NCBI GenBank assembly: GCA_018674495.1
Contig: JABHAA010000147.1
Span: 24,111-88,110 of the forward strand
Direction: 5' to 3'
Source: Rhodospirillaceae bacterium
Lineage (GTDB): Bacteria > Pseudomonadota > Alphaproteobacteria > Rhodospirillales > UBA2165
DNA length: 64,000 bases
Part shown: positions 12,275-55,394 of the stretch, in pieces
Position numbering within the stretch: position 1 is the stretch's first letter
Layout of the letters: each line of letters begins with the position of its first letter
Program-made: the position numbers and the translations under genes
The notes under the pieces: model-generated
Databases searched by the model: none
Told to the model about the DNA's origin: nothing
The model's input: the letters and a program-made list of their open reading frames with translations, nothing else

Positions 12275-13393
12275 ATGGGACAACGGGGGAATAATCCGGT
12301 GCACACCAATCAGCACCGAAACAAGCGGCGGCGGACCCAATTCGGACCGGCCCGCAATTTCAAGCAACGCCTTTATGGCGCACTTGATCTGGGGACCAAC
12401 AATTGCCGCTTGCTGATCGCCCGCCCGGTGGGTTTCGGGTTTCGTGTAACCGCGTCTTTTTCAAGGGTCGTGCGTTTGGGTGAGGGACTGAGTGCATCCG
12501 GGCGCTTAAGCGATACCGCCATGGACCGCACCATCCAGGCACTAGCCATCTGCGCCGCCAAATTAAAGGATCTGGGCGTCGCTTCCAGCCGCAACATCAC
12601 TACCGAGGCCTGCCGGCGTGCCGACAATTGCAATAGTTTCATCGAAAAAATCGATCAGCAAACCGGCCTCGCGTTCGAGACCATTTCCTACCGGGAGGAG
12701 GCGCGCCTTGCCTTGCTTGGTTGCCAAAGTCTGCTGACCGACGGCCTGCCATACGCCCTGGTATTCGATATCGGCGGCGGCTCCACCGAATTAACCTGGG
12801 CGCGGCGCAACGAGGTCAACGGCTTTGACATCATCGACGTTTTGTCGCTCCCCTTCGGCGTCGTTACCCTGGCCGAGGAATGTGATCCTCCGGAGATTGA
12901 TTGCGGCGCCTACCAAAAAATGGTCGCCCATATTCAAGACCAATTGCCAGATTTTTGTGATCGCAACAAGATCCGCCAGGAAGTTTCGGCCGGGAGCGTT
13001 CAGATGCTGGGAACATCAGGCACGGTGACCACCCTTGGCGCCGTGCATCTGAAACTGCCGCGCTATTCTAGGTCCTTGATCGATGGGTTGGAGATCGATT
13101 TTGAGGCCCTCGAGGCGGCGACGGCGATGCTGTCCAGCCTGGATTTTGAGCGCCGCGCCGAAGTGCCCTGCATCGGCGCCGAGCGGGCCGAGTTGGTAAT
13201 CCCAGGCTGCGCGATATTAGAGGCGATCCGCAAATGCTGGCCGGTGGGCAAGTTGAGCGTCGCTGACCGGGGCCTGCGCGAAGGCATCCTGATGGAACTG
13301 ATGGCCGCCGATGGCGAGCCGATCGTCGGCAATCCGGCGGAACGCGCCCAGATGGATGCGAAGCCGGGCCCCAGTCAGAACGAAACCCAGTGA
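12275..13393 (+). CDS. ppx: Ppx/GppA-family phosphatase (exopolyphosphatase / guanosine pentaphosphate phosphohydrolase)
   Basis: ASKHA-fold phosphate-1 motif ALDLGTNNCRLLIA and the FDIGGGSTEL motif. Overlaps rlmE by 4 bp. Confidence 0.8.
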   Translation: MGQRGNNPVHTNQHRNKRRRTQFGPARNFKQRLYGALDLGTNNCRLLIARPVGFGFRVTASFSRVVRLGEGLSASGRLSDTAMDRTIQALAICAAKLKDLGVASSRNITTEACRRADNCNSFIEKIDQQTGLAFETISYREEARLALLGCQSLLTDGLPYALVFDIGGGSTELTWARRNEVNGFDIIDVLSLPFGVVTLAEECDPPEIDCGAYQKMVAHIQDQLPDFCDRNKIRQEVSAGSVQMLGTSGTVTTLGAVHLKLPRYSRSLIDGLEIDFEALEAATAMLSSLDFERRAEVPCIGAERAELVIPGCAILEAIRKCWPVGKLSVADRGLREGILMELMAADGEPIVGNPAERAQMDAKPGPSQNETQ

Positions 13394-14091
13394 CCCGCCG
13401 TCACGCCAAGGCACGGCCCGGACGCGGCGCCCATGTTCGCGTCAAAACCGCCAAGGGCCGCAAATTATCTTCAACCCTTTGGTTGCAGCGCCAATTGAAC
13501 GATCCCTATGTGGAAGCGGCAACCCGCGAAGGCTACCGCAGCCGCGCTGCCTACAAGCTGGCCGAGCTGGATGAGCGATTCAAGTTTTTGAAGAAGGGCA
13601 TCAAGGTTATCGATCTCGGCGCTGCGCCGGGTGGCTGGACCCAGGTGATCGCTACCGCCATCGGCTCCAAGAACCGCTCCACCGGCGGGCGCGTCGTTGC
13701 CATCGATACCCAGCCCATGGACCCGATCGAGGGCGCCGAATTGCTGACCTTGGATTTTCTCGATGACGGCGCGCCGGAAACCATCATGGCAAGTCTCGGC
13801 GGGCCGGCCGATGCGGTGTTGTCGGACATGGCGCCGCGCATGACCGGACACGCCAAAACCGATCATTTACGCATCATGGCCCTGGCCGAGGCGGCCTTTG
13901 CATTTGCCACCGAAGTGCTGGCGCCGGGCGGTGTATTCGTCGCCAAGGTGTTACAGGGCGGCACCGAGAAAGATCTGCTGACCGAAATGAAAACCTGCTT
14001 TGCCACCGTGCGGCACGCCAAACCGCCCGCAAGCCGCTCCGATTCGTCCGAAATATATGTGGTGGCAATTGGGTTTCGGGGTGCCGGTTAG
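13390..14091 (+). CDS. rlmE: 23S rRNA (uridine2552-2'-O)-methyltransferase RlmE (FtsJ/RrmJ)
   Basis: WLQRQLNDPYV...GYRSRAAYKLAELD N-terminus. SAM motif DLGAAPGGW. Confidence 0.85.
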   Translation: MTRRHAKARPGRGAHVRVKTAKGRKLSSTLWLQRQLNDPYVEAATREGYRSRAAYKLAELDERFKFLKKGIKVIDLGAAPGGWTQVIATAIGSKNRSTGGRVVAIDTQPMDPIEGAELLTLDFLDDGAPETIMASLGGPADAVLSDMAPRMTGHAKTDHLRIMALAEAAFAFATEVLAPGGVFVAKVLQGGTEKDLLTEMKTCFATVRHAKPPASRSDSSEIYVVAIGFRGAG

Positions 14092-14117
14092 GCGCTTTTT
14101 CCTCTGATTTCAGTTGA

Positions 14118-15671
<1,554 letters not shown>

Positions 15672-47935: not shown

Positions 47936-48020
47936 AACCGCTTCCCCTTGATCAATTGCTCTATTGTTGAAATCATCATATCAGCAGATAAGCCTGCGTC
48001 CAGAACAAGGGAGAGCATTC

Positions 48021-48509
48021 GTGAACCAATTAACCAACATGGCCGCCGCCGTTGGCCAGCTTCTTAAAGATCGTGGCGAGACGGTAGGGGTATCGGAATC
48101 CTCAACCGGTGGGCTGGTCTCGGCGGCGCTTTTGTCGATCCCCGGCGCGTCCGCATATTTCACCGGCGGCGCCGCCAACTACACCCACACCGCGCGCGAA
48201 GCCTTCATCGGGTTCAGTCTCGACGATCATCCAGGCATGCGCTCTTCGACCGAGCCTTTCGTCGAATTGGGCGCGAAGACGGTGCGCGAAGTTCTCGGCA
48301 CCACATGGGGAGTTGCCGAAGCCGGCGCAGCAGGGCCGACGGGTAACCGATACGGCGACGATGCCGGCCATAGCTGCATCGCCATTGCCGGGCCGGTCAA
48401 CAAGGTGATTACGATTGAGACCGGCGACAGCGACCGGGAAGCCAATATGTGGCGCTTCGCCGAAGAAGTATTGAAAACCTTCGAAGCCGCGATCCGCGAA
48501 GCCGGTTAG
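48021..48509 (+). CDS. CinA-C-terminal-domain protein (nicotinamide-nucleotide amidohydrolase PncC-like)
   Basis: GVSESSTGGLVSAALLSIPGASAYF.GG..Y motif. GTG 48021 is preceded by AAGGGAGAG. Confidence 0.8.
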   Translation: MNQLTNMAAAVGQLLKDRGETVGVSESSTGGLVSAALLSIPGASAYFTGGAANYTHTAREAFIGFSLDDHPGMRSSTEPFVELGAKTVREVLGTTWGVAEAGAAGPTGNRYGDDAGHSCIAIAGPVNKVITIETGDSDREANMWRFAEEVLKTFEAAIREAG

Positions 48510-48573
48510 GCGAACGGATTGCCGTCGGCATCGATGGCGCTGGGCAGTCCCCGGACCCGGCCCAGCCAGGCGG

Positions 48574-49188
48574 CTATGCGACCAAATTCTGATCGATATA
48601 TTCGATCATTTTGATGACGCTCTCATCGATGCTTTGCTGGGCCGTATCGACCGTATATTCAGCCTTTTCTGGCTCTTCGTAGGGCGCCGAGACGCCGGTA
48701 TATTCCGGAATTTTGCCGGCTCGGGCCAGCGCCCAATGGCCCTTGGGATCGCGCCGCTCGCAGGTTTCGATGTCGGCGTCGATATAAATCTCGTGGAACA
48801 AGTCGCCGGCGGCTTTGCGGGCGATGTCCCTGTCTTCCCGGTAAGGCGAAATGAAGGCGGTGATGACGATGAAACCGGCATCGGCAAAGAGGCTCGCAAC
48901 CTCGCCGATGCGGCGGATATTTTCAGTGCGATCTTCCGGCGAAAACCCAAGATCCGAGGAAAGGCCCTGGCGCACATTGTCGCCGTCGAGCACATAAACC
49001 TGGCGGCCCAATTCAAACAATTTGTGTTCGGTCTCGATGGCCAGTGTGGATTTACCGGAACCGGGCAACCCAGTGAACCAAAGGACGCCGCCCCGATGAC
49101 TGTTGGCGCCAGCCCGCGCCTCCGCCGAAATGCGATGTTTCACGGTAACAAGGTTATCAGATTTAATCGCCATTATTGTATCCACCAA
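48574..49188 (-). CDS. cysC: Adenylyl-sulfate (APS) kinase
   Basis: P-loop GLPGSGKST. LDGDNVR and FISPYREDR motifs. 204 aa. No cysD/cysN is adjacent. Confidence 0.85.
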   Translation of the reverse strand: MVDTIMAIKSDNLVTVKHRISAEARAGANSHRGGVLWFTGLPGSGKSTLAIETEHKLFELGRQVYVLDGDNVRQGLSSDLGFSPEDRTENIRRIGEVASLFADAGFIVITAFISPYREDRDIARKAAGDLFHEIYIDADIETCERRDPKGHWALARAGKIPEYTGVSAPYEEPEKAEYTVDTAQQSIDESVIKMIEYIDQNLVA

Positions 49189-49243
49189 TAAATTTGCCGG
49201 CCCAATGCCAGCGCACAGCTTCTAAAAGAATTGACCCGCCGCT

Positions 49244-50047
49244 TCAAGTCACTTTCGGCTCCACATCCAGACGCGCGACGATGCCTTTGAGATCACCGGT
49301 CGGCGCCGGGTAGCGTTCCAGCACCAATGGATCATGCCCCGGAATTATGTGATCCGGGCTCGATGCGAGCCGGCGCAAATTCGAAAAACCTTCTAGCATT
49401 TCGCCGGTATTGAAGACCACCGGATAGGGCCGGCCCTCATCCATATTGGCGTAGAAATGCGCCGCATCGGAGGCCAGCACCACCCAGCCGCGCTTGGTCC
49501 AAATCCGCATCACCTGCAATCCCATGGTGTGACCGCCGATGCGGTGCAGCGTGATGCCGGGCGCGATCTCCGCATCGCCGTCGTGGAATTGGACGCGGCC
49601 CTGGAATAGACGTTCGACCATGGTCATCACGTCGGCGGCTTCGAATGAATGGCTGATTGTCCCGTGGCACATATGGCGGCCCGTGGCGAAGGCCATTTCG
49701 TCATCCTGGATGTGAAAGCGCGCTTTGGGAAACAGTTCCAGATTGCCGCCATGGTCGTAATGCATATGGCTGATGATGACGTCTTCCACATCGCTGGTCG
49801 TAACGCCAATGGCAGCCAGGCCTTCCGCCGGATCGGCCAGAAATTCGCGTCCCCGACGGGTGCCCACTTCCGATTTAAAGCCAGTATCGAGGACGTATGT
49901 TCCGCCCGCACCGACAATGGCCCAGACGAAATAATCCAGCGGCATGGGTCCGTCATGGGGATCGCCGCCAATGAAGTTGGCGGCCGCATTACGCTCCAAA
50001 TGGCCATAGCGGACCGCATAAATCTCGTAAGGTTCGGGGCCTGACAC
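49244..50047 (-). CDS. MBL-fold hydrolase of the N-acyl-homoserine-lactonase-like family
   Basis: HMHYDHGGN (HxHxDH) motif. YEIYAVRYG N-terminus, as in AttM/AiiB-like lactonases. Confidence 0.75.
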   Translation of the reverse strand: MSGPEPYEIYAVRYGHLERNAAANFIGGDPHDGPMPLDYFVWAIVGAGGTYVLDTGFKSEVGTRRGREFLADPAEGLAAIGVTTSDVEDVIISHMHYDHGGNLELFPKARFHIQDDEMAFATGRHMCHGTISHSFEAADVMTMVERLFQGRVQFHDGDAEIAPGITLHRIGGHTMGLQVMRIWTKRGWVVLASDAAHFYANMDEGRPYPVVFNTGEMLEGFSNLRRLASSPDHIIPGHDPLVLERYPAPTGDLKGIVARLDVEPKVT

Positions 50048-50051
50048 CGGA

Positions 50052-50954
50052 TTAGCCGTCTTCCGGCGGCTTCACTTCGACGCCGGCGCGCCTCTCGACG
50101 CATTTGACGATTTCCGAGAAGTCCGCATCGCTGCCCAATTCGGCAAGCGCCCGCTCCCAGACATCGCGCACCGTGGCGGCGAGGGTCATCGGGATGCCCA
50201 TCGCCTCGCCCTCGGCCAGAGCGAGGGCCACGTCTTTGTGCATCAGCCCGACAGAAAACCCCAAATCGAATTTGCGCGGCAAAATGGCGCCCGCGAACTT
50301 ACCGTCGGTGGCGGTGTTTTTGCCGGAGCCGGAATTGATCACATCCAGCATGATACGGGGATCGAGGCCGGCTTTAACCCCCATCACCATGGCTTCCGAC
50401 GAGATCGCCAAAGCCGTTGCCGAGAGAAGATTGTTGGCTAGCTTCATGGTCTGGCCCATGCCGGCTTCCTCGCCGACATGAAAGACATTGCCGATCACTT
50501 CCAGCGGCGCCCGTACCCGCTCCAAGGCTTCTGGCGCGGCTGCGGCCATTACCGCCAGGGTGCCGGCTACGGCGCCCGAGACACCGCCCGAAACCGGCGT
50601 ATCGACGACGGCGATATCGGTGTCGGCCAGCGCTGCTGCAACTTCAGCCGCCATGCGCGGGCCGGTGGTCGATAGATCCACATAGGTTTTGACGCGGTTG
50701 CCGGACGAAATACCGCCCGGGCCGAGGGCGACCGCCTTGACCACGTCCGGGGTCGGCAGGCTGACCAGCACCACTTCGGCCGCCGAGGCGACGGCAGCCG
50801 GCGAGGCTGCCTTTGTGGCGCCGAGATCGACCAACTCCGCGACCGCGTCCTCGTTGATATCGTAGATGGTCAGATCAAATCCGGCATCCAGCAATCGCCG
50901 GCACATGGGCGCGCCCATATTGCCAACGCCGATAAATCCTACGGCTTCAGCCAC
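50052..50954 (-). CDS. NAD(P)-dependent 3-hydroxyisobutyrate-dehydrogenase-family oxidoreductase
   Basis: GFIGVGNMGAPM dinucleotide motif. About 300 aa. Confidence 0.8.
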   Translation of the reverse strand: MAEAVGFIGVGNMGAPMCRRLLDAGFDLTIYDINEDAVAELVDLGATKAASPAAVASAAEVVLVSLPTPDVVKAVALGPGGISSGNRVKTYVDLSTTGPRMAAEVAAALADTDIAVVDTPVSGGVSGAVAGTLAVMAAAAPEALERVRAPLEVIGNVFHVGEEAGMGQTMKLANNLLSATALAISSEAMVMGVKAGLDPRIMLDVINSGSGKNTATDGKFAGAILPRKFDLGFSVGLMHKDVALALAEGEAMGIPMTLAATVRDVWERALAELGSDADFSEIVKCVERRAGVEVKPPEDG

Positions 50955-50988
50955 AATTCCCCCTTATTGTATTCAGACGACCCGCCCT

Positions 50989-51885
50989 TTACTGGATCTG
51001 ACCGGTCGCCAGCCAGTGGGCGCATTCCTCGCCCAATTCTGCATCCGCCAGATTTTCGTATTTTTTGATTTCCACGTCCGAAAGCGTATCCTTCCAACGG
51101 CCGTTGACGCCCCGGTGGATGAATTGCTCGGCGCCGCCGTCCCAGAAGGCGCCGCCCAGCGGCACCGACGCCGTTGCGTTGGCTTTCATGTAATCAAAGC
51201 TGCAATGGTGCAGGATCGTATCCCACTTCGATTCATCGATATCTATTTCCAGGAAGGCGGCGATCTTGCGGATCTCGCCGGGCATGTCGTCTTTCAAGGC
51301 ACCGAAGTGGATCAGATTGACGTTGGGAAGATCGCGGATGTCCCACCAGGTCTGGATGTTTTCCCAGAACGACCAGAACGGGAAGCCATCCTGATCGAGC
51401 CATTCGTGATAATACTGAACAATATTGTCCACCGGCCTATCCATCGGTGGGCCGACCAGGCCGGGGGTTTCATTGAGCGCCTCGTACCAGGCGTCGTTGG
51501 CGGTTGAGTGATGGTTATAGAGGCTCCACACCACATCGCGGCCATCGCGGGCGATATAGATATATTTGACCTTTTCAGAGAACACCAAGGCATCCACCGG
51601 CAGATGGGTCTTCATGAAGCGGCGATGGGTCTGCGCCTCGACGCCGGCCAGCTTGACCTCGTTGGGTGGGATGCGGAGATCGAGCCAGGGCGACATATCG
51701 GCCACCGGCAAGCCTTCTTCGCCATTGAACAGCAATTGGCTGATAATCTGCTGCACCCAGGTGGTACCGGTCTTGGCGTAGGTGGCGATGATGATGTCAT
51801 CGTCGCGAAATGGAAAATCATTCCAGACGGTGGAATCGAAATGGTTGCTTTCCATCTCTCTGGTTTTTTTCGGGGTACCTGACAT
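50989..51885 (-). CDS. PAPS-dependent sulfotransferase (Sulfotransfer_1, cytosolic-SULT-like)
   Basis: 5'-PSB loop YAKTGTTWVQQI (consensus PKxGTTW). 3'-PB motif IARDGRDVVWSLYNH (consensus RxxxDxxxSxYxH). Confidence 0.75.
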   Translation of the reverse strand: MSGTPKKTREMESNHFDSTVWNDFPFRDDDIIIATYAKTGTTWVQQIISQLLFNGEEGLPVADMSPWLDLRIPPNEVKLAGVEAQTHRRFMKTHLPVDALVFSEKVKYIYIARDGRDVVWSLYNHHSTANDAWYEALNETPGLVGPPMDRPVDNIVQYYHEWLDQDGFPFWSFWENIQTWWDIRDLPNVNLIHFGALKDDMPGEIRKIAAFLEIDIDESKWDTILHHCSFDYMKANATASVPLGGAFWDGGAEQFIHRGVNGRWKDTLSDVEIKKYENLADAELGEECAHWLATGQIQ

Positions 51886-51976
51886 TGTTCTTAACTCCTC
51901 CCTGAAGCGTTTTGATGGCTTTGTTGTATGACCGTTAGAGTAACAATTTCACACAAAAATTAAAGGTTCAACCAAA

Positions 51977-54313
51977 TCACGAACCTGTCAGCGCCCGCCA
52001 GATGCGTTCCGAAGTGACCGGCATTTCGATGTTTTCGATGCCGGTGTGTTTGAGCGCATCGACAATGGCGCTGACGATGACGGCCGGCGCCGGCGTGGTA
52101 CCGCCCTCGCCCACCCCCTTGACGCCGAGGGGATTGCTGGCAGACGGAATCTCGGAAAAATCGATGCGGAAGGGCGGAAAATTATCGGCCCTCGGCATGG
52201 CGTAATCGAGCATGGTGCCGGCCACGATCTGGCCGCTTTGCCTATCGTGTATAGGGCCTTCCATCAGCGCCTGGCCGGCGCCCTGGGCGATGCCGCCATG
52301 CACCTGACCCTCGGCGAGCAACGGATTGATGACCCGCCCGCAATCATCGATCTGGGCATAGTCCACCAGCGTCACGTGCCCGGTTTCGGGGTCCACTTCC
52401 ACCTCGACAATAGCGCAGCCGGCGGGATAGGCGGGCAGCCGTTTTTCCACGTAGCCGGTACCGTCCAGGCCGCCTTGCAAATCCTCCGGCGCATTACCGC
52501 TTTCGGCGGCCGCCGCCACTTCAAAGAGGCTGATGCTCCGGTCGGTGCCTTTGATGGTGAAGGCACCGGCTTCGAATTCGAAATCGTTTTCGGCGGCTTC
52601 CAGGGCGTGCGCCGCGATGCGCTTGCCCTTTTCGATGATCGCGTCCGAGGCCCAGCTCAACACCGTGCCACCGAGGCGCATGGAGCGTACGCTTTGCGAG
52701 CCGCCGCCGACCACGATTTGATTGGAATCACCAAGCGAGATGCGCACCGCACCGAAATCAACGCCGAGCCGCTCGCACAAGACTTGCGCAAACACCGTCT
52801 CGTGTCCCTGGCCGGTCGGCCCGGTACCAATGACAGCGCTGATGCTCCCTGAGCCATGCACCGTGACGTCGGCCCGTTCCCGCGGCATGCCGGTGGGCGT
52901 TTCGAAATAATTGGCAAGGCCCAACCCACGCAGGCGGCCCCTGGCTTCGGAATCTTTGCGCCGCGCTTCGAACCCGTCCCAGCCGGCCAGATCCTGTGCC
53001 GCCTGCATATTTCCAGGGAAATCGACGTTATCCCACGGCACCCCGAAGGCCGAGTTGAAGGGCAGCTTGTCGGCGGGCACCATGTTTTTGCGGCGCAGCT
53101 CCACCCGGTCCATGCCCAAACGCTTGGCCGCGATATCGATGGTGCGCTCGATATTGAAGATGGATTCGGGCCGCCCCGCCCCCCGGTATGGGCCCGTGGG
53201 CACCGTGTTGGTAAAGACGCCGATGCCGTTGAGGTAGGCGTTATCGAAATGATAGCAGCCGGTGGACGTCCAGCCGGCGTTGCTCAGAGGCACATAGGCC
53301 ATGGAGATGGCGCCGACGTTGGAAAGCAGCTTGATCTTTAGCGCCGTGAAATGGCCATCCGCGTCCAGCCCCAAGGTCATGTGGGCGCGGAAATCCCGGC
53401 CATGCATGTCGGATGCGAAACACTCCCACCGCTCGGCCCGCCACTTCACCGGTCGGCCCAGGCGCATTGAGCCCCAGGCGATCAGCACATGTTCGGGGTA
53501 TATGAAATTGCGCGCACCGAAGCCGCCGCCCACATCGGTGGTCACTACATGGATCGATGCGGGCTCCATCCCAAACACCCGGGACAGCATCATCTTGTAA
53601 TTGAACACCCCTTGGGAATCGGCGTGCATGAACAAGGTGCCGGCGGCGGTATCGAAGCTGGCAACCGAGACCCTTGGCTCCATGGGCACCTGCGCAACCC
53701 GGGGATTGACCAGTTCCACCTCGACCACATGGGCGGCGGCGGCCAGGGCGGCATCGGTGGCTGCCTCGTCGCCCTTTTCCATATCGACGGCGATATTGCC
53801 GGGCGCACCCTTCCAGATTTCGGCGGCGCCCGGCTGCATGGCGTCGGATAAATCGACGCTAACCGGCAACTCGGCATAATCGACGCGGATAAGATCGGAC
53901 GCGCCGCGCGCCTGATCGGCAGTCTCGGCGATCACGAAGGCCAGCGGCTGGCCGACGAAGCGCACCCGGTCATCGGCCAAAACTTTTAGCGGGCTTTGGA
54001 ACATTGGCGCGCCGTCCCGGTTGGCCAGGGACGGAACTTCGGGCTGAAACAGACCCGCCGGGTTGGAAATATATGGCAAATCGCCAAGGCCGTCTTCGGC
54101 GTAGTCCTTGGCGGTCAGCACCAATAGCACGCCAGGCGCCTCCTTCGCCGCTGCCACGTCGATGGCGGTAATCTCGGCGTGCGCCATTTCGGCGCGCTTA
54201 ACATGGCCGTGGGCCTGGCCTTCTAAGTTCACATCATCCGTATAAACGCCGTTGCCGGTGAGCAAGCGCTGGTCTTCCACCCGCCGCACCGGCTGGCCGA
54301 TACCCATTTCCAT
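51977..54313 (-). CDS. Xanthine-dehydrogenase-family molybdopterin-binding large subunit (CoxL-like), second copy, without adjacent Fe-S or FAD subunits
   Basis: N-terminus GQPVRRVEDQRLLTGNG. GGGFGAR motif. Start placed at MEMGIG (54313); the track ORF extends to 54445. Confidence 0.8.
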   Translation of the reverse strand: MEMGIGQPVRRVEDQRLLTGNGVYTDDVNLEGQAHGHVKRAEMAHAEITAIDVAAAKEAPGVLLVLTAKDYAEDGLGDLPYISNPAGLFQPEVPSLANRDGAPMFQSPLKVLADDRVRFVGQPLAFVIAETADQARGASDLIRVDYAELPVSVDLSDAMQPGAAEIWKGAPGNIAVDMEKGDEAATDAALAAAAHVVEVELVNPRVAQVPMEPRVSVASFDTAAGTLFMHADSQGVFNYKMMLSRVFGMEPASIHVVTTDVGGGFGARNFIYPEHVLIAWGSMRLGRPVKWRAERWECFASDMHGRDFRAHMTLGLDADGHFTALKIKLLSNVGAISMAYVPLSNAGWTSTGCYHFDNAYLNGIGVFTNTVPTGPYRGAGRPESIFNIERTIDIAAKRLGMDRVELRRKNMVPADKLPFNSAFGVPWDNVDFPGNMQAAQDLAGWDGFEARRKDSEARGRLRGLGLANYFETPTGMPRERADVTVHGSGSISAVIGTGPTGQGHETVFAQVLCERLGVDFGAVRISLGDSNQIVVGGGSQSVRSMRLGGTVLSWASDAIIEKGKRIAAHALEAAENDFEFEAGAFTIKGTDRSISLFEVAAAAESGNAPEDLQGGLDGTGYVEKRLPAYPAGCAIVEVEVDPETGHVTLVDYAQIDDCGRVINPLLAEGQVHGGIAQGAGQALMEGPIHDRQSGQIVAGTMLDYAMPRADNFPPFRIDFSEIPSASNPLGVKGVGEGGTTPAPAVIVSAIVDALKHTGIENIEMPVTSERIWRALTGS

Positions 54314-54466
54314 TTTCGTTTTCCCGCCTGTAATTGTGCCGGTATCCTTGGATGTTCCCGCAACCGACTTCAAGGCAAAAAATTGGGGCCGCGCGCCCCG
54401 CTTGACAGCGGCGATAGAGGACCGAAAATACCGGCTACGCCACAATATGGATTAGAGAGGCCTGCC

Positions 54467-54985
54467 ATGCTTCCCATGCCCATCGGAGATTTGGAAAAAA
54501 TATCGCGCCAGTTGGACGAAGAAGGCCGCCGCATCCAGGTTCTCTGGCAAGTGCCGCAGTCGCTCGCCTTCGTTGCCAGGGGCCGCGAATACCGGTCCGA
54601 GTTCCACATCGATCCCTCGGACGAGCTGATGTATATGATCAAGGGCGAAATGAACCTCCATTACCGGGACGAAGACGGAAAAGAAGATATTTCGGTGCTG
54701 AAAGAGGGCGAGATTATCTACACCGCCGCCGGCATCCCCCACAGCCCGCGCTTTCCGCCCGATGCGTTTCTTCTTGTGATGGAGCGCAAACGCCTGCCCG
54801 GCGAGATCGACCGCTTCCATTGGTTCTGCCCCGATTGCGACAATTTTCTGCACGAAGAAACTTTCATCGTCGAGGATTACCACTTGGACCCAGTGTCCAA
54901 GGCCTACCGCAATTTCTTCGATTCGGAAGAATTTCGCACCTGCAATGCTTGCGGCACCGTCATGCCGTATTTTGAAAGCACCTAA
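54467..54985 (+). CDS. nbaC: 3-hydroxyanthranilate 3,4-dioxygenase
   Basis: Cupin core FHIDPSDELMYMIKGEMNL...LKEGEIIY...PHSPRF. Rubredoxin-like C-terminus WFCPDC...CNAC. Colinear with bacterial HAO as I remember it. RBS AGAGAGG. Confidence 0.85.
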   Translation: MLPMPIGDLEKISRQLDEEGRRIQVLWQVPQSLAFVARGREYRSEFHIDPSDELMYMIKGEMNLHYRDEDGKEDISVLKEGEIIYTAAGIPHSPRFPPDAFLLVMERKRLPGEIDRFHWFCPDCDNFLHEETFIVEDYHLDPVSKAYRNFFDSEEFRTCNACGTVMPYFEST

Positions 54986-54989
54986 TATC

Positions 54990-55394
54990 ATGCCCAAACA
55001 AATCGTCACCTCGGCCACCGCGCCGACCACCGGATTTACGGACAAGGCCACCCAATCGCCCCTCGCCCAGGGCATTCGCTGGGGCGATGCGTTGTTCGTA
55101 TCGGGGCAAGGACCGCTCGATCCGGAAACCAAGGAGGTGGTCTCCGAAGACATTCAGGATCAGACCCGCCAGACCTTGAAAAACCTCAAGGGGGTATTGG
55201 CCGCCGCCGGCGCCGATTTCACCAACGTGGTCAATATGCGGGTCTGCCTGCGCGACGCCGCCGATTTCCCCAAATTCAACGAGACCTTCGCCGAGATATT
55301 GGCTGGCGAAAAGGTCACCCGCACCTGCATCGGCGGCACCCCGCACCGGAAGGGCGTCAATGTGGAGATCGACTGTATCGCCATGTTTGACTGA
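54990..55394 (+). CDS. RidA/YjgF-family enamine/imine deaminase (2-aminomuconate-deaminase-like)
   Basis: 134 aa with RidA-family layout (..GDALFVSGQGPLDPET...RTCIGG...VEIDCIA). Confidence 0.8.
   Translation: MPKQIVTSATAPTTGFTDKATQSPLAQGIRWGDALFVSGQGPLDPETKEVVSEDIQDQTRQTLKNLKGVLAAAGADFTNVVNMRVCLRDAADFPKFNETFAEILAGEKVTRTCIGGTPHRKGVNVEIDCIAMFD

Follow-up and report, generated by a model that had tools for sequence, protein, structure and literature searches.

The window analysed here, a stretch of 64,000 nucleotides from the metagenome-assembled genome (MAG) of a marine Rhodospirillaceae bacterium, carries on its minus strand four neighbouring genes, encoding a cytosolic-type sulfotransferase (SULT), a dehydrogenase of the 3-hydroxyisobutyrate dehydrogenase family (HIBADH), a lactonase-like hydrolase of the metallo-beta-lactamase fold (MBL), and CysC, the kinase of adenosine 5'-phosphosulfate (APS). 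We read these, with a probability of roughly 0.6, as two separable modules adjoining the only APS kinase of the genome: the kinase product, 3'-phosphoadenosine 5'-phosphosulfate (PAPS), would be used for sulfation only and would be common to all sulfotransferases of the organism, while the HIBADH-MBL pair would be a passenger. Throughout, G000 denotes the source genome (158 contigs, 95.7% complete), in which the window is contig C147; other G numbers denote related genomes and L numbers fetched loci. The four genes are as follows.

50989–51885, minus strand: SULT, PAPS-dependent cytosolic-type Sulfotransfer_1 protein, 298 aa; PF00685; the "core" orthologue common to many bacterial phyla
50052–50954, minus strand: HIBADH-family dehydrogenase of 300 aa, NAD(P)-dependent, for a beta-hydroxyacid or an aldehyde; PF03446 (NAD_binding_2) and PF14833 (NAD_binding_11)
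49244–50047, minus strand: MBL, lactonase-like metallo-beta-lactamase-fold hydrolase, 267 aa; PF00753, HMHYDH motif
48574–49173, minus strand: cysC, APS kinase, 199 aa from the ATG at 49173 (204 aa from the TTG at 49188 in the list of open reading frames, ORFs)

The positions and the shared strand given in the first-pass annotation hold up, as do all four family assignments in profile searches, and its gaps of 35, 5 and 56 bp differ from the 34, 4 and 55 nt counted here only by counting convention. The start of cysC is placed at the ATG at 49173, which aligns with the starts of its orthologues and lies 70 nt from MBL. Four same-strand genes with short gaps are ordinary in bacteria, and the arrangement by itself is not statistically remarkable.

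The APS kinase and the fate of PAPS

CysC is clearly recognised as an APS kinase (PF01583, 206.4 bits; NF003013, 248.4 bits against a cut-off of 163; TIGR00455, 229.2 bits against 138.7) and, as the single PF01583 match in G000, it is the sole APS kinase domain of the genome. PAPS_reduct, the family of both CysH and CysD, has no match in G000 (control matches were obtained in 14/14 genomes), and no CysN scores above its cut-off. The first-pass annotation had remarked that no cysDN adjoins this cysC and had proposed looking for cysD, cysN and cysH elsewhere; none of the three is found next to the gene or anywhere in G000. Within the genus of the window, APS kinase is found in 4/4 genomes and PAPS_reduct in 0/4 (genomes 92–96% complete), and in the 41 related genomes the counts are 36 and 16, respectively; all compared genomes are draft MAGs, and absences are to be read as not found in the genomes searched. 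With no CysH or CysD, PAPS has no reductive use in G000 and must therefore serve sulfation, which supports a predicted role of cysC in sulfation and not in assimilation.

The alternative is that cysC serves ordinary assimilatory sulfate reduction and that SULT is incidental to it, a case that the first-pass annotation had itself set out. Its premise of a sole cysC is right, and a CysI/NirA-like siroheme protein is encoded on contig C145. The assimilatory role itself falls, however: PAPS_reduct is missing from all four genomes of the genus and CysN from G000 and, since there is no PAPS reductase, PAPS cannot enter reduction. We have rejected cysC as an assimilation gene on these grounds and give this alternative almost no credence.

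The remaining sulfur genes of G000 include a single ATP sulfurylase, a stand-alone Sat (C109:43107–44312); AprA on the same contig (C109:24988–26808; 1078.9 bits, cut-off 641.75); DsrA and DsrB, each scoring higher than its equivalog cut-off (C76, approximately 12414–14217); and CysQ (255.6 bits, cut-off 228.8). With this complement G000 looks like a sulfur or sulfite oxidiser of the reverse-Dsr/Apr/Sat kind, unable to reduce APS or PAPS by assimilatory enzymes. The gene content, the motifs, the gene orders described below and the genome-wide absences are observations; the direction of flux is what we infer from them. The single stand-alone Sat would supply the APS, perhaps together with AprBA working on sulfite, and CysC would convert it to PAPS, used only as a sulfuryl donor because the genus lacks a CysH-type reductase. 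SULT would then move the sulfuryl group to the hydroxyl of a small acceptor by way of its conserved Lys, His, Arg and Ser, assigned by homology, and the 3'-phosphoadenosine 5'-phosphate released would be recycled by CysQ.

The sole kinase faces a number of potential consumers. G000 has eight full-length Sulfotransfer_1 genes of the SULT1 type and at least five other candidate sulfotransferases (approximately 13 in total), with a Sulfotransfer_3 domain present in four large ORFs and weaker sulfotransferase matches on contigs C54, C97 and C85. The first-pass annotation had taken the solitary cysC to suggest a dedicated PAPS supply for sulfating a small molecule; this view is not supported, as one cysC faces about 13 sulfotransferase-domain genes and also has promoter-like boxes of its own. 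One of the SULT paralogues (C52:15798–17573, equivalent to L132:6798–8573) lies inside a 591-aa frame whose first ~300 residues have no Pfam match; it may be a fusion or an over-long ORF call.

The boxes and a neighbouring hairpin lie between MBL and cysC.

49219–49248, minus strand: promoter-like boxes CTTGAAG-N15-TTTAGAAG, 5' of cysC and overlapping the MBL stop codon; conserved in 5/5 genomes
49196–49212, minus strand: short GC hairpin or palindrome in the cysC leader, terminator-like in the scan; kept in four genomes of the genus

In the five aligned genomes (G000–G003 and G013), CTTGAAG and TTTAGAAG are invariant within the 70 nt before the cysC ATG, while the 15-nt spacer between them is variable; cysC follows MBL in three of the five and SULT in the other two. 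This is the footprint expected of a promoter, which we infer the boxes to be, reading them as TTGAAG-17 nt-TAGAAG. A scan with the sigma-70 consensus did not list them because the second hexamer ends in G; promoter-like sites in the scan numbered 3 against 2.6 expected, none of them in the relevant gaps, and terminator-like sites numbered 17 against 6.1 expected, all weak. The GC hairpin of the leader is not kept in G013, and no riboswitch or known RNA was matched in Rfam across positions 48000–55000 at E ≤ 1. Upstream, the gaps of 34 and 4 nt leave little room for a promoter, so in this species one transcript probably covers SULT, HIBADH and MBL.

Gene order among relatives and across the wider clade

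SULT has a match in 17 of the 41 related genomes (16/24 from the same family, 0/16 from other families of the order), and 12 loci were fetched around the best orthologues, which are 74–94% identical. The sister species G001 has the order of the window, SULT-HIBADH-MBL-cysC, which is thus observed in two species, and G013, from another genus, has HIBADH-MBL-SULT-cysC. In G003, of the same genus as the window, the order is CoxL-SULT-cysC-cinA-leuCD, with SULT and cysC directly adjoining, and in G014 and G021, of a third genus, SULT-cysC stands beside lepA, as it does by coordinates in G024. All four genes are therefore together in 2/12 related loci (G001 and G013) and SULT-cysC alone in 3/12; the other 7/12 have no HIBADH, MBL or cysC in the fetched stretch.

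The HIBADH-MBL pair, for its part, is found without SULT. G002, again of the same genus, has HIBADH-MBL-cysC-cinA-leuCD with no SULT there, and its best SULT match anywhere is at paralogue level (63%). MBL matches at orthologue level (57–91% identity) occur in eight other genomes, six of which were fetched: HIBADH-MBL is on one strand in other contexts in G004, G012 and G016, and in G004 it is flanked by genes for Rieske oxygenases resembling LigXa and VanA; in G027 MBL is accompanied only by a convergent HIBADH-family gene at 38% identity, and in G026 by none. Four of these genomes (G004, G016, G026 and G027) carry the MBL orthologue and have no SULT match at all, while G003 has no MBL match at E ≤ 1e-20. 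Each module thus exists without the other, and the recurrent link is therefore that of SULT with cysC, the only one to recur in more than one context (lepA in genus g12, cinA-leuCD in genera g1 and g11). None of the seven genomes with this adjacency (G000, G001, G003, G013, G014, G021 and G024) has a PAPS_reduct match, and in kin that retain PAPS_reduct genes (G006, G008, G011 and G018, by coordinates) cysC sits with those genes. The SULT-cysC adjacency would then be a lineage-specific convenience that arose in genomes after the loss of assimilatory genes, and HIBADH-MBL would be an independent catabolic pair, neither module needing the other.

Two observations concern the position of the pair and of SULT. 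In G012 (L122, contig C61), HIBADH-MBL stands beside an isopropylmalate-dehydrogenase-like gene, and in the genus of the window the pair is near leuCD; HIBADH-MBL may have been ancestrally in the leu region, with SULT-cysC the newcomer. At the position that SULT occupies in the sister genomes, G002 has a 263-nt imperfect palindrome (L121:7670–7932) with 94-nt arms that are 73% complementary. As a candidate repeated mobile element it was rejected, with only two weak matches in G000.

These gene orders bear directly on the proposal that the four genes are one unit for making or modifying a sulfated hydroxy-lactone or hydroxy-acid, in which the acceptor would come from the lactonase and dehydrogenase and its sulfation would have a PAPS source of its own in cysC. 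The first-pass annotation had taken the pair as a hint to such an acceptor and had named conservation of the neighbourhood as a check. The proposal draws on the common strand and short gaps, on the identical order in G001, and on the presence of all four genes side by side, in another order, in a second genus (G013). It is difficult to reconcile with SULT-cysC in G003, with nothing between the two genes and no MBL orthologue; with HIBADH-MBL-cysC in G002, where SULT matches do not exceed the paralogue level (≤63%); with the MBL orthologues of the four genomes that have no SULT match; with the pair beside LigXa-like Rieske oxygenases in G004; and with a sole cysC for some 13 sulfotransferase-domain genes. 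The unit is not conserved, either in the 12 related loci or in the species loci described below, the pair does not point to the acceptor, and we consider the proposal improbable.

Beyond the close relatives, a scan of one genome per species gave 80 SULT loci at 59–94% identity. A tblastn search of these loci with 16 proteins of the window found no recurrent neighbour: cysC is within 8 kb of SULT in 3/80 (all three kin already seen), HIBADH with MBL in 1/80, and all four genes together in 1/80. De novo clustering of 4139 ORFs likewise gave no neighbour family in more than 8/80 loci once frames overlapping SULT were set aside. To sample the immediate neighbours, we looked up to 600 nt to either side of SULT and kept the closest ORF that reached 100 aa, leaving out the same-genus loci L041 and L042; this gave 137 ORFs, from which six were dropped (two from L045 and one each from L049, L050, L055 and L072). 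The 131 scanned fall into 143 Pfam families, LysR being the commonest at 5/131, although the ORF filter sometimes took an antisense shadow frame, by which cysC was missed in L046. With nothing recurrent from tblastn, clustering or the Pfam tally, we rejected conserved neighbours as a pointer to the acceptor of SULT.

This scatter of neighbours is also what would be expected if the adjacency had no functional meaning, with SULT, HIBADH-MBL and cysC merely sharing, by descent, a rearrangement-prone spot upstream of cinA-leuCD. The palindromic element at the same spot in G002 and the promoter-like boxes that cysC has for itself fit such a history as well. However, SULT-cysC is also found in genus g12 in the different context of lepA, and the adjacency coincides in 7/7 genomes with the absence of CysH and CysD, while cysC joins those genes in the four kin that have them. 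We think it unlikely that the adjacency is without meaning, but give that view some weight.

As to the pair itself, HIBADH falls below all NCBIfam equivalog cut-offs and is a superfamily member only (3-hydroxyisobutyrate dehydrogenase, 211.5 bits against a cut-off of 397; tartronate-semialdehyde reductase, 189.8 against 291.6; sulfolactaldehyde reductase, 166.1 against 348). Among solved structures it comes closest to 3cky, a 2-(hydroxymethyl)glutarate dehydrogenase (8.6e-52). MBL matches PF00753 at 50.9 bits (cut-off 22.7), and its closest solved relative is 8x78, a "glyoxylase, beta-lactamase superfamily II" (3.5e-27), with lactonases next; a literature search found no paper mentioning PDB 8x78. 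The first-pass annotation had called it similar to the lactonases of N-acyl homoserine lactones (AHL): fold and motif bear this out, but it belongs to no lactonase equivalog, scoring 33–61 bits against cut-offs of 325–475 for the AHL lactonases (AiiA, AidB, AhlS, AttM and YtnP) and 4-pyridoxolactonase. What it has in common with them, even with AiiA as the best (61.4 bits against 375), is limited to the HxHxDH motif and membership of the MBL fold family; look-alike clusters in the Atlas are auto-named "N-acyl homoserine lactonase family". The simplest reading would be a catabolic pair that takes a lactone to the hydroxy-acid and on to the oxo-acid.

The sulfotransferase, its clade and its acceptor

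The first-pass annotation had named a eukaryote-type PAPS sulfotransferase with recognisable phosphate-binding motifs, and both parts are borne out. SULT matches PF00685 at 166.6 bits (cut-off 22), residues 28–283 aligning with profile positions 1–250 of 255, and the translation contains the 5'-phosphosulfate-binding (5'-PSB) loop YAKTGTTW at residues 36–43 and the 3'-phosphate-binding (3'-PB) motif RDGRDVVWSLYNH at residues 113–125. Among 88 aligned relatives (the very divergent second copy L104b being left out), K38, G40, T41 and W43 of the PSB loop are invariant, as are H94, R113 and S121. The closest solved relative is human SULT1B1 (1.2e-28 by sequence over ~265 aligned residues, and 2.6e-38 with a 49-sequence profile), and His94, in KTHLP, aligns with the KTHLP of that enzyme. 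At the C-terminal RKG...GxxGxxK motif the sequence reads HRGVNGRWK: G259, N261 and W264 are found in 88/88 relatives and K or R at position 258 in 82/88, while position 257 is H, N or Y and not R. By its profile score, its alignment with SULT1B1 and these conserved K/H/R/S positions, SULT is a genuine homologue of the PAPS-type cytosolic sulfotransferases.

Homologues are numerous. Of 8000 candidates scored, at least 7810 match at E ≤ 0.001, and the best 120 are all at least 71% identical. Going by record titles, the 80 species loci belong to Alpha-, Beta- and Gammaproteobacteria, Bacteroidota, Planctomycetota, Verrucomicrobiota, Acidobacteriota, a Vulcanimicrobiota bin and one "Halobacteria" bin. 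The relative in this last bin, labelled Halobacteria archaeon (L051, CAVYIJ010000010.1), is 73% identical to the SULT of the window and groups with Halieaceae and Opitutales sequences, which points to a binning error or a transfer. The tree, of 89 rows, was computed quickly, with SH-aLRT as its sole measure of support and the root placed at the midpoint; it is to be read as unrooted, and L104b sits on a very long branch. Two of its groupings are relied on here: the seven other SULT copies of G000 form one clade with L120, from a single Rhodospirillaceae MAG (SH-aLRT 99), and the SULT of the window joins L041 (support 98). The latter is surrounded by orthologues from related genera and adjoins Bacteroidota sequences. 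The classes are interspersed on the tree, Alphaproteobacteria requiring 10 changes. We read this as a lineage-specific expansion of SULT next to a "core" gene that has apparently moved between phyla, and claim no donor.

No characterised member of the clade was found: no NCBIfam model matched SULT, and searches of the published literature were empty, with subscription journals and supplements outside their reach. Nor is the clade treated in the portions available of PMC12506393, PMC13449962 and PMC9417993. The Sulfotransfer_1 domain is not rare in bacteria, since 3359 entries are tabulated for Pseudomonadota alone in PMC13449962; what is rare for a bacterial Sulfotransfer_1 protein is a known substrate.

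The genes upstream of SULT provide a different set of possible partners. The CoxL-like ORF ends 91 nt before the SULT start, upstream and on the same strand, as the first-pass annotation had it, and a further set of genes diverges from it.

51977–54445, minus strand: CoxL-like molybdopterin large subunit; PF02738, PF20256 and PF01315
54383–57060, plus strand: genes for a 3-hydroxyanthranilate-dioxygenase-like protein (3-HAO), a RidA-family protein and a UbiD-family decarboxylase, together an aminophenol-type ring-cleavage set; retained in G003

One of the eight SULT1-type genes of G000, on contig C63 (C63:26346–29751, L133), is divergent to a 772-aa CoxL-like gene, so that 2/8 adjoin such a gene. 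SULT might accordingly partner the upstream genes, sulfating a hydroxylated N-heteroaromatic or aminophenol intermediate that comes from the CoxL-like hydroxylase or from the 3-HAO/RidA/UbiD operon. The CoxL-SULT adjacency and the divergent 3-HAO-RidA-UbiD genes are kept in G003, the second paralogue beside a CoxL-like gene agrees with the idea, and other paralogues of G000 have Rieske, HpcH, Amidohydro_2 and luciferase-like genes for neighbours. The arrangement is not kept beyond the genus, however: the G013 locus has no CoxL match, orthologues in other genera stand beside lepA, glnE or LysR genes, and the idea has no citable biochemical precedent. We allow it a slim chance. Under our preferred reading of a PAPS supply common to all sulfotransferases, the acceptor of SULT would still probably be phenolic or heteroaromatic, as suggested by faint clues: the similarity to SULT1, the CoxL-like, 3-HAO, RidA and UbiD genes next door, and the neighbours of the paralogues.

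Several points weigh against that reading. The SULT-cysC adjacency is itself rare (3/80 species loci, 5/12 related loci) and may in part be an inheritance common to one family. All three modules stand side by side in three orders in genera g1 and g11, which could indicate selection for linkage of all four genes. The terminator-like hairpins between MBL and cysC are weak, and read-through from SULT is possible. AprBA might, in principle, also work in the reductive direction and supply the CysI/NirA-like protein on C145: it is only the role of PAPS in sulfate assimilation that is excluded, and sulfate assimilation as such may still take place. The idea of a phenolic acceptor draws entirely on SULT1 homology and on the catabolic genes that lie beside some of the paralogues. 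Finally, the source is an uncultured MAG in 158 contigs, and the functions given here are predictions from its genes.

If the reading is correct, PAPS in this organism is purely a sulfuryl donor, and one kinase gene gates sulfation by about 13 candidate sulfotransferases. The interest of the locus is carried by this genome-level picture, with expanded SULTs next to Dsr, Apr and Sat, and by the size of the uncharacterised clade. The acceptor of SULT, once found, would annotate thousands of genes and would bear on the origin of marine and soil sulfate esters; the better target is SULT alone, with cysC for the PAPS supply, rather than a four-gene pathway. A bolder version can be imagined, against which we would ourselves bet. 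A dark-ocean, sulfur-oxidising lineage of Rhodospirillales might have given up CysH-type reduction of PAPS and APS, its APS kinase solely driving an expanded battery of cytosolic-type SULTs in aromatic-catabolic islands. PAPS would be made from APS drawn off dissimilatory sulfite oxidation (AprBA/Sat), and hydroxylated (hetero)aromatics would be sulfated as a regular step in handling dissolved organic matter. Such bacteria would be microbial producers of marine aryl sulfates, and the cross-phylum "core" SULT would have one specific and widespread acceptor.

Comparison with known systems

The HIBADH-MBL pair recalls attKLM-type lactone catabolism of Agrobacterium, which reportedly combines a lactonase with a hydroxy-acid dehydrogenase. 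Both have a lactonase-like hydrolase of the MBL fold adjoining a dehydrogenase able to oxidise the ring-opened hydroxy-acid. The window MBL is nevertheless no member of the AttM equivalog (49.5 bits against 390), its dehydrogenase is of the HIBADH family, and the locus shows no succinic-semialdehyde dehydrogenase.

The animal cytosolic SULT1 enzymes (SULT1B1, 1C2, 1A1 and 1E1) are the best solved relatives of the window SULT; both are about 300 aa long, and the 5'-PSB Lys, the catalytic His and the 3'-PB Arg and Ser are all present in the bacterial protein. The match is distant (1.2e-28 at best), the animal RKG is replaced by HRG, and the window SULT belongs to a separate, purely prokaryotic clade that is 59–94% identical across phyla. 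The KxxxTVxxxE motif, which we take to be the dimer motif of animal SULTs, is not recognisable in the alignment with SULT1B1.

In the rhizobial NodPQ/NodH and mycobacterial CysNC/Stf systems, PAPS is supplied, in dedicated or shared fashion, for sulfating metabolites. They share with G000 the use of PAPS for sulfation rather than reduction; they are built from CysD and CysN-CysC fusions with sulfotransferases of the Sulfotransfer_3 or Stf0 type, unlike the stand-alone CysC, Sat and Sulfotransfer_1 protein found here.

The closest described system is that of Bacteroides thetaiotaomicron, an organism which also matches PF00685 in our control search. At the window, unlike in BT_0411–0416, only the kinase adjoins SULT, the single Sat is on contig C109 and of another type, there is no CysDN, and we see no sulfate transporter in the locus. 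As described in PMC9417993, the cholesterol sulfotransferase BT_0416 adjoins the PAPS-synthesis genes BT_0411–0415; like the window SULT, it is a bacterial PAPS-dependent sulfotransferase adjoining genes of PAPS supply.

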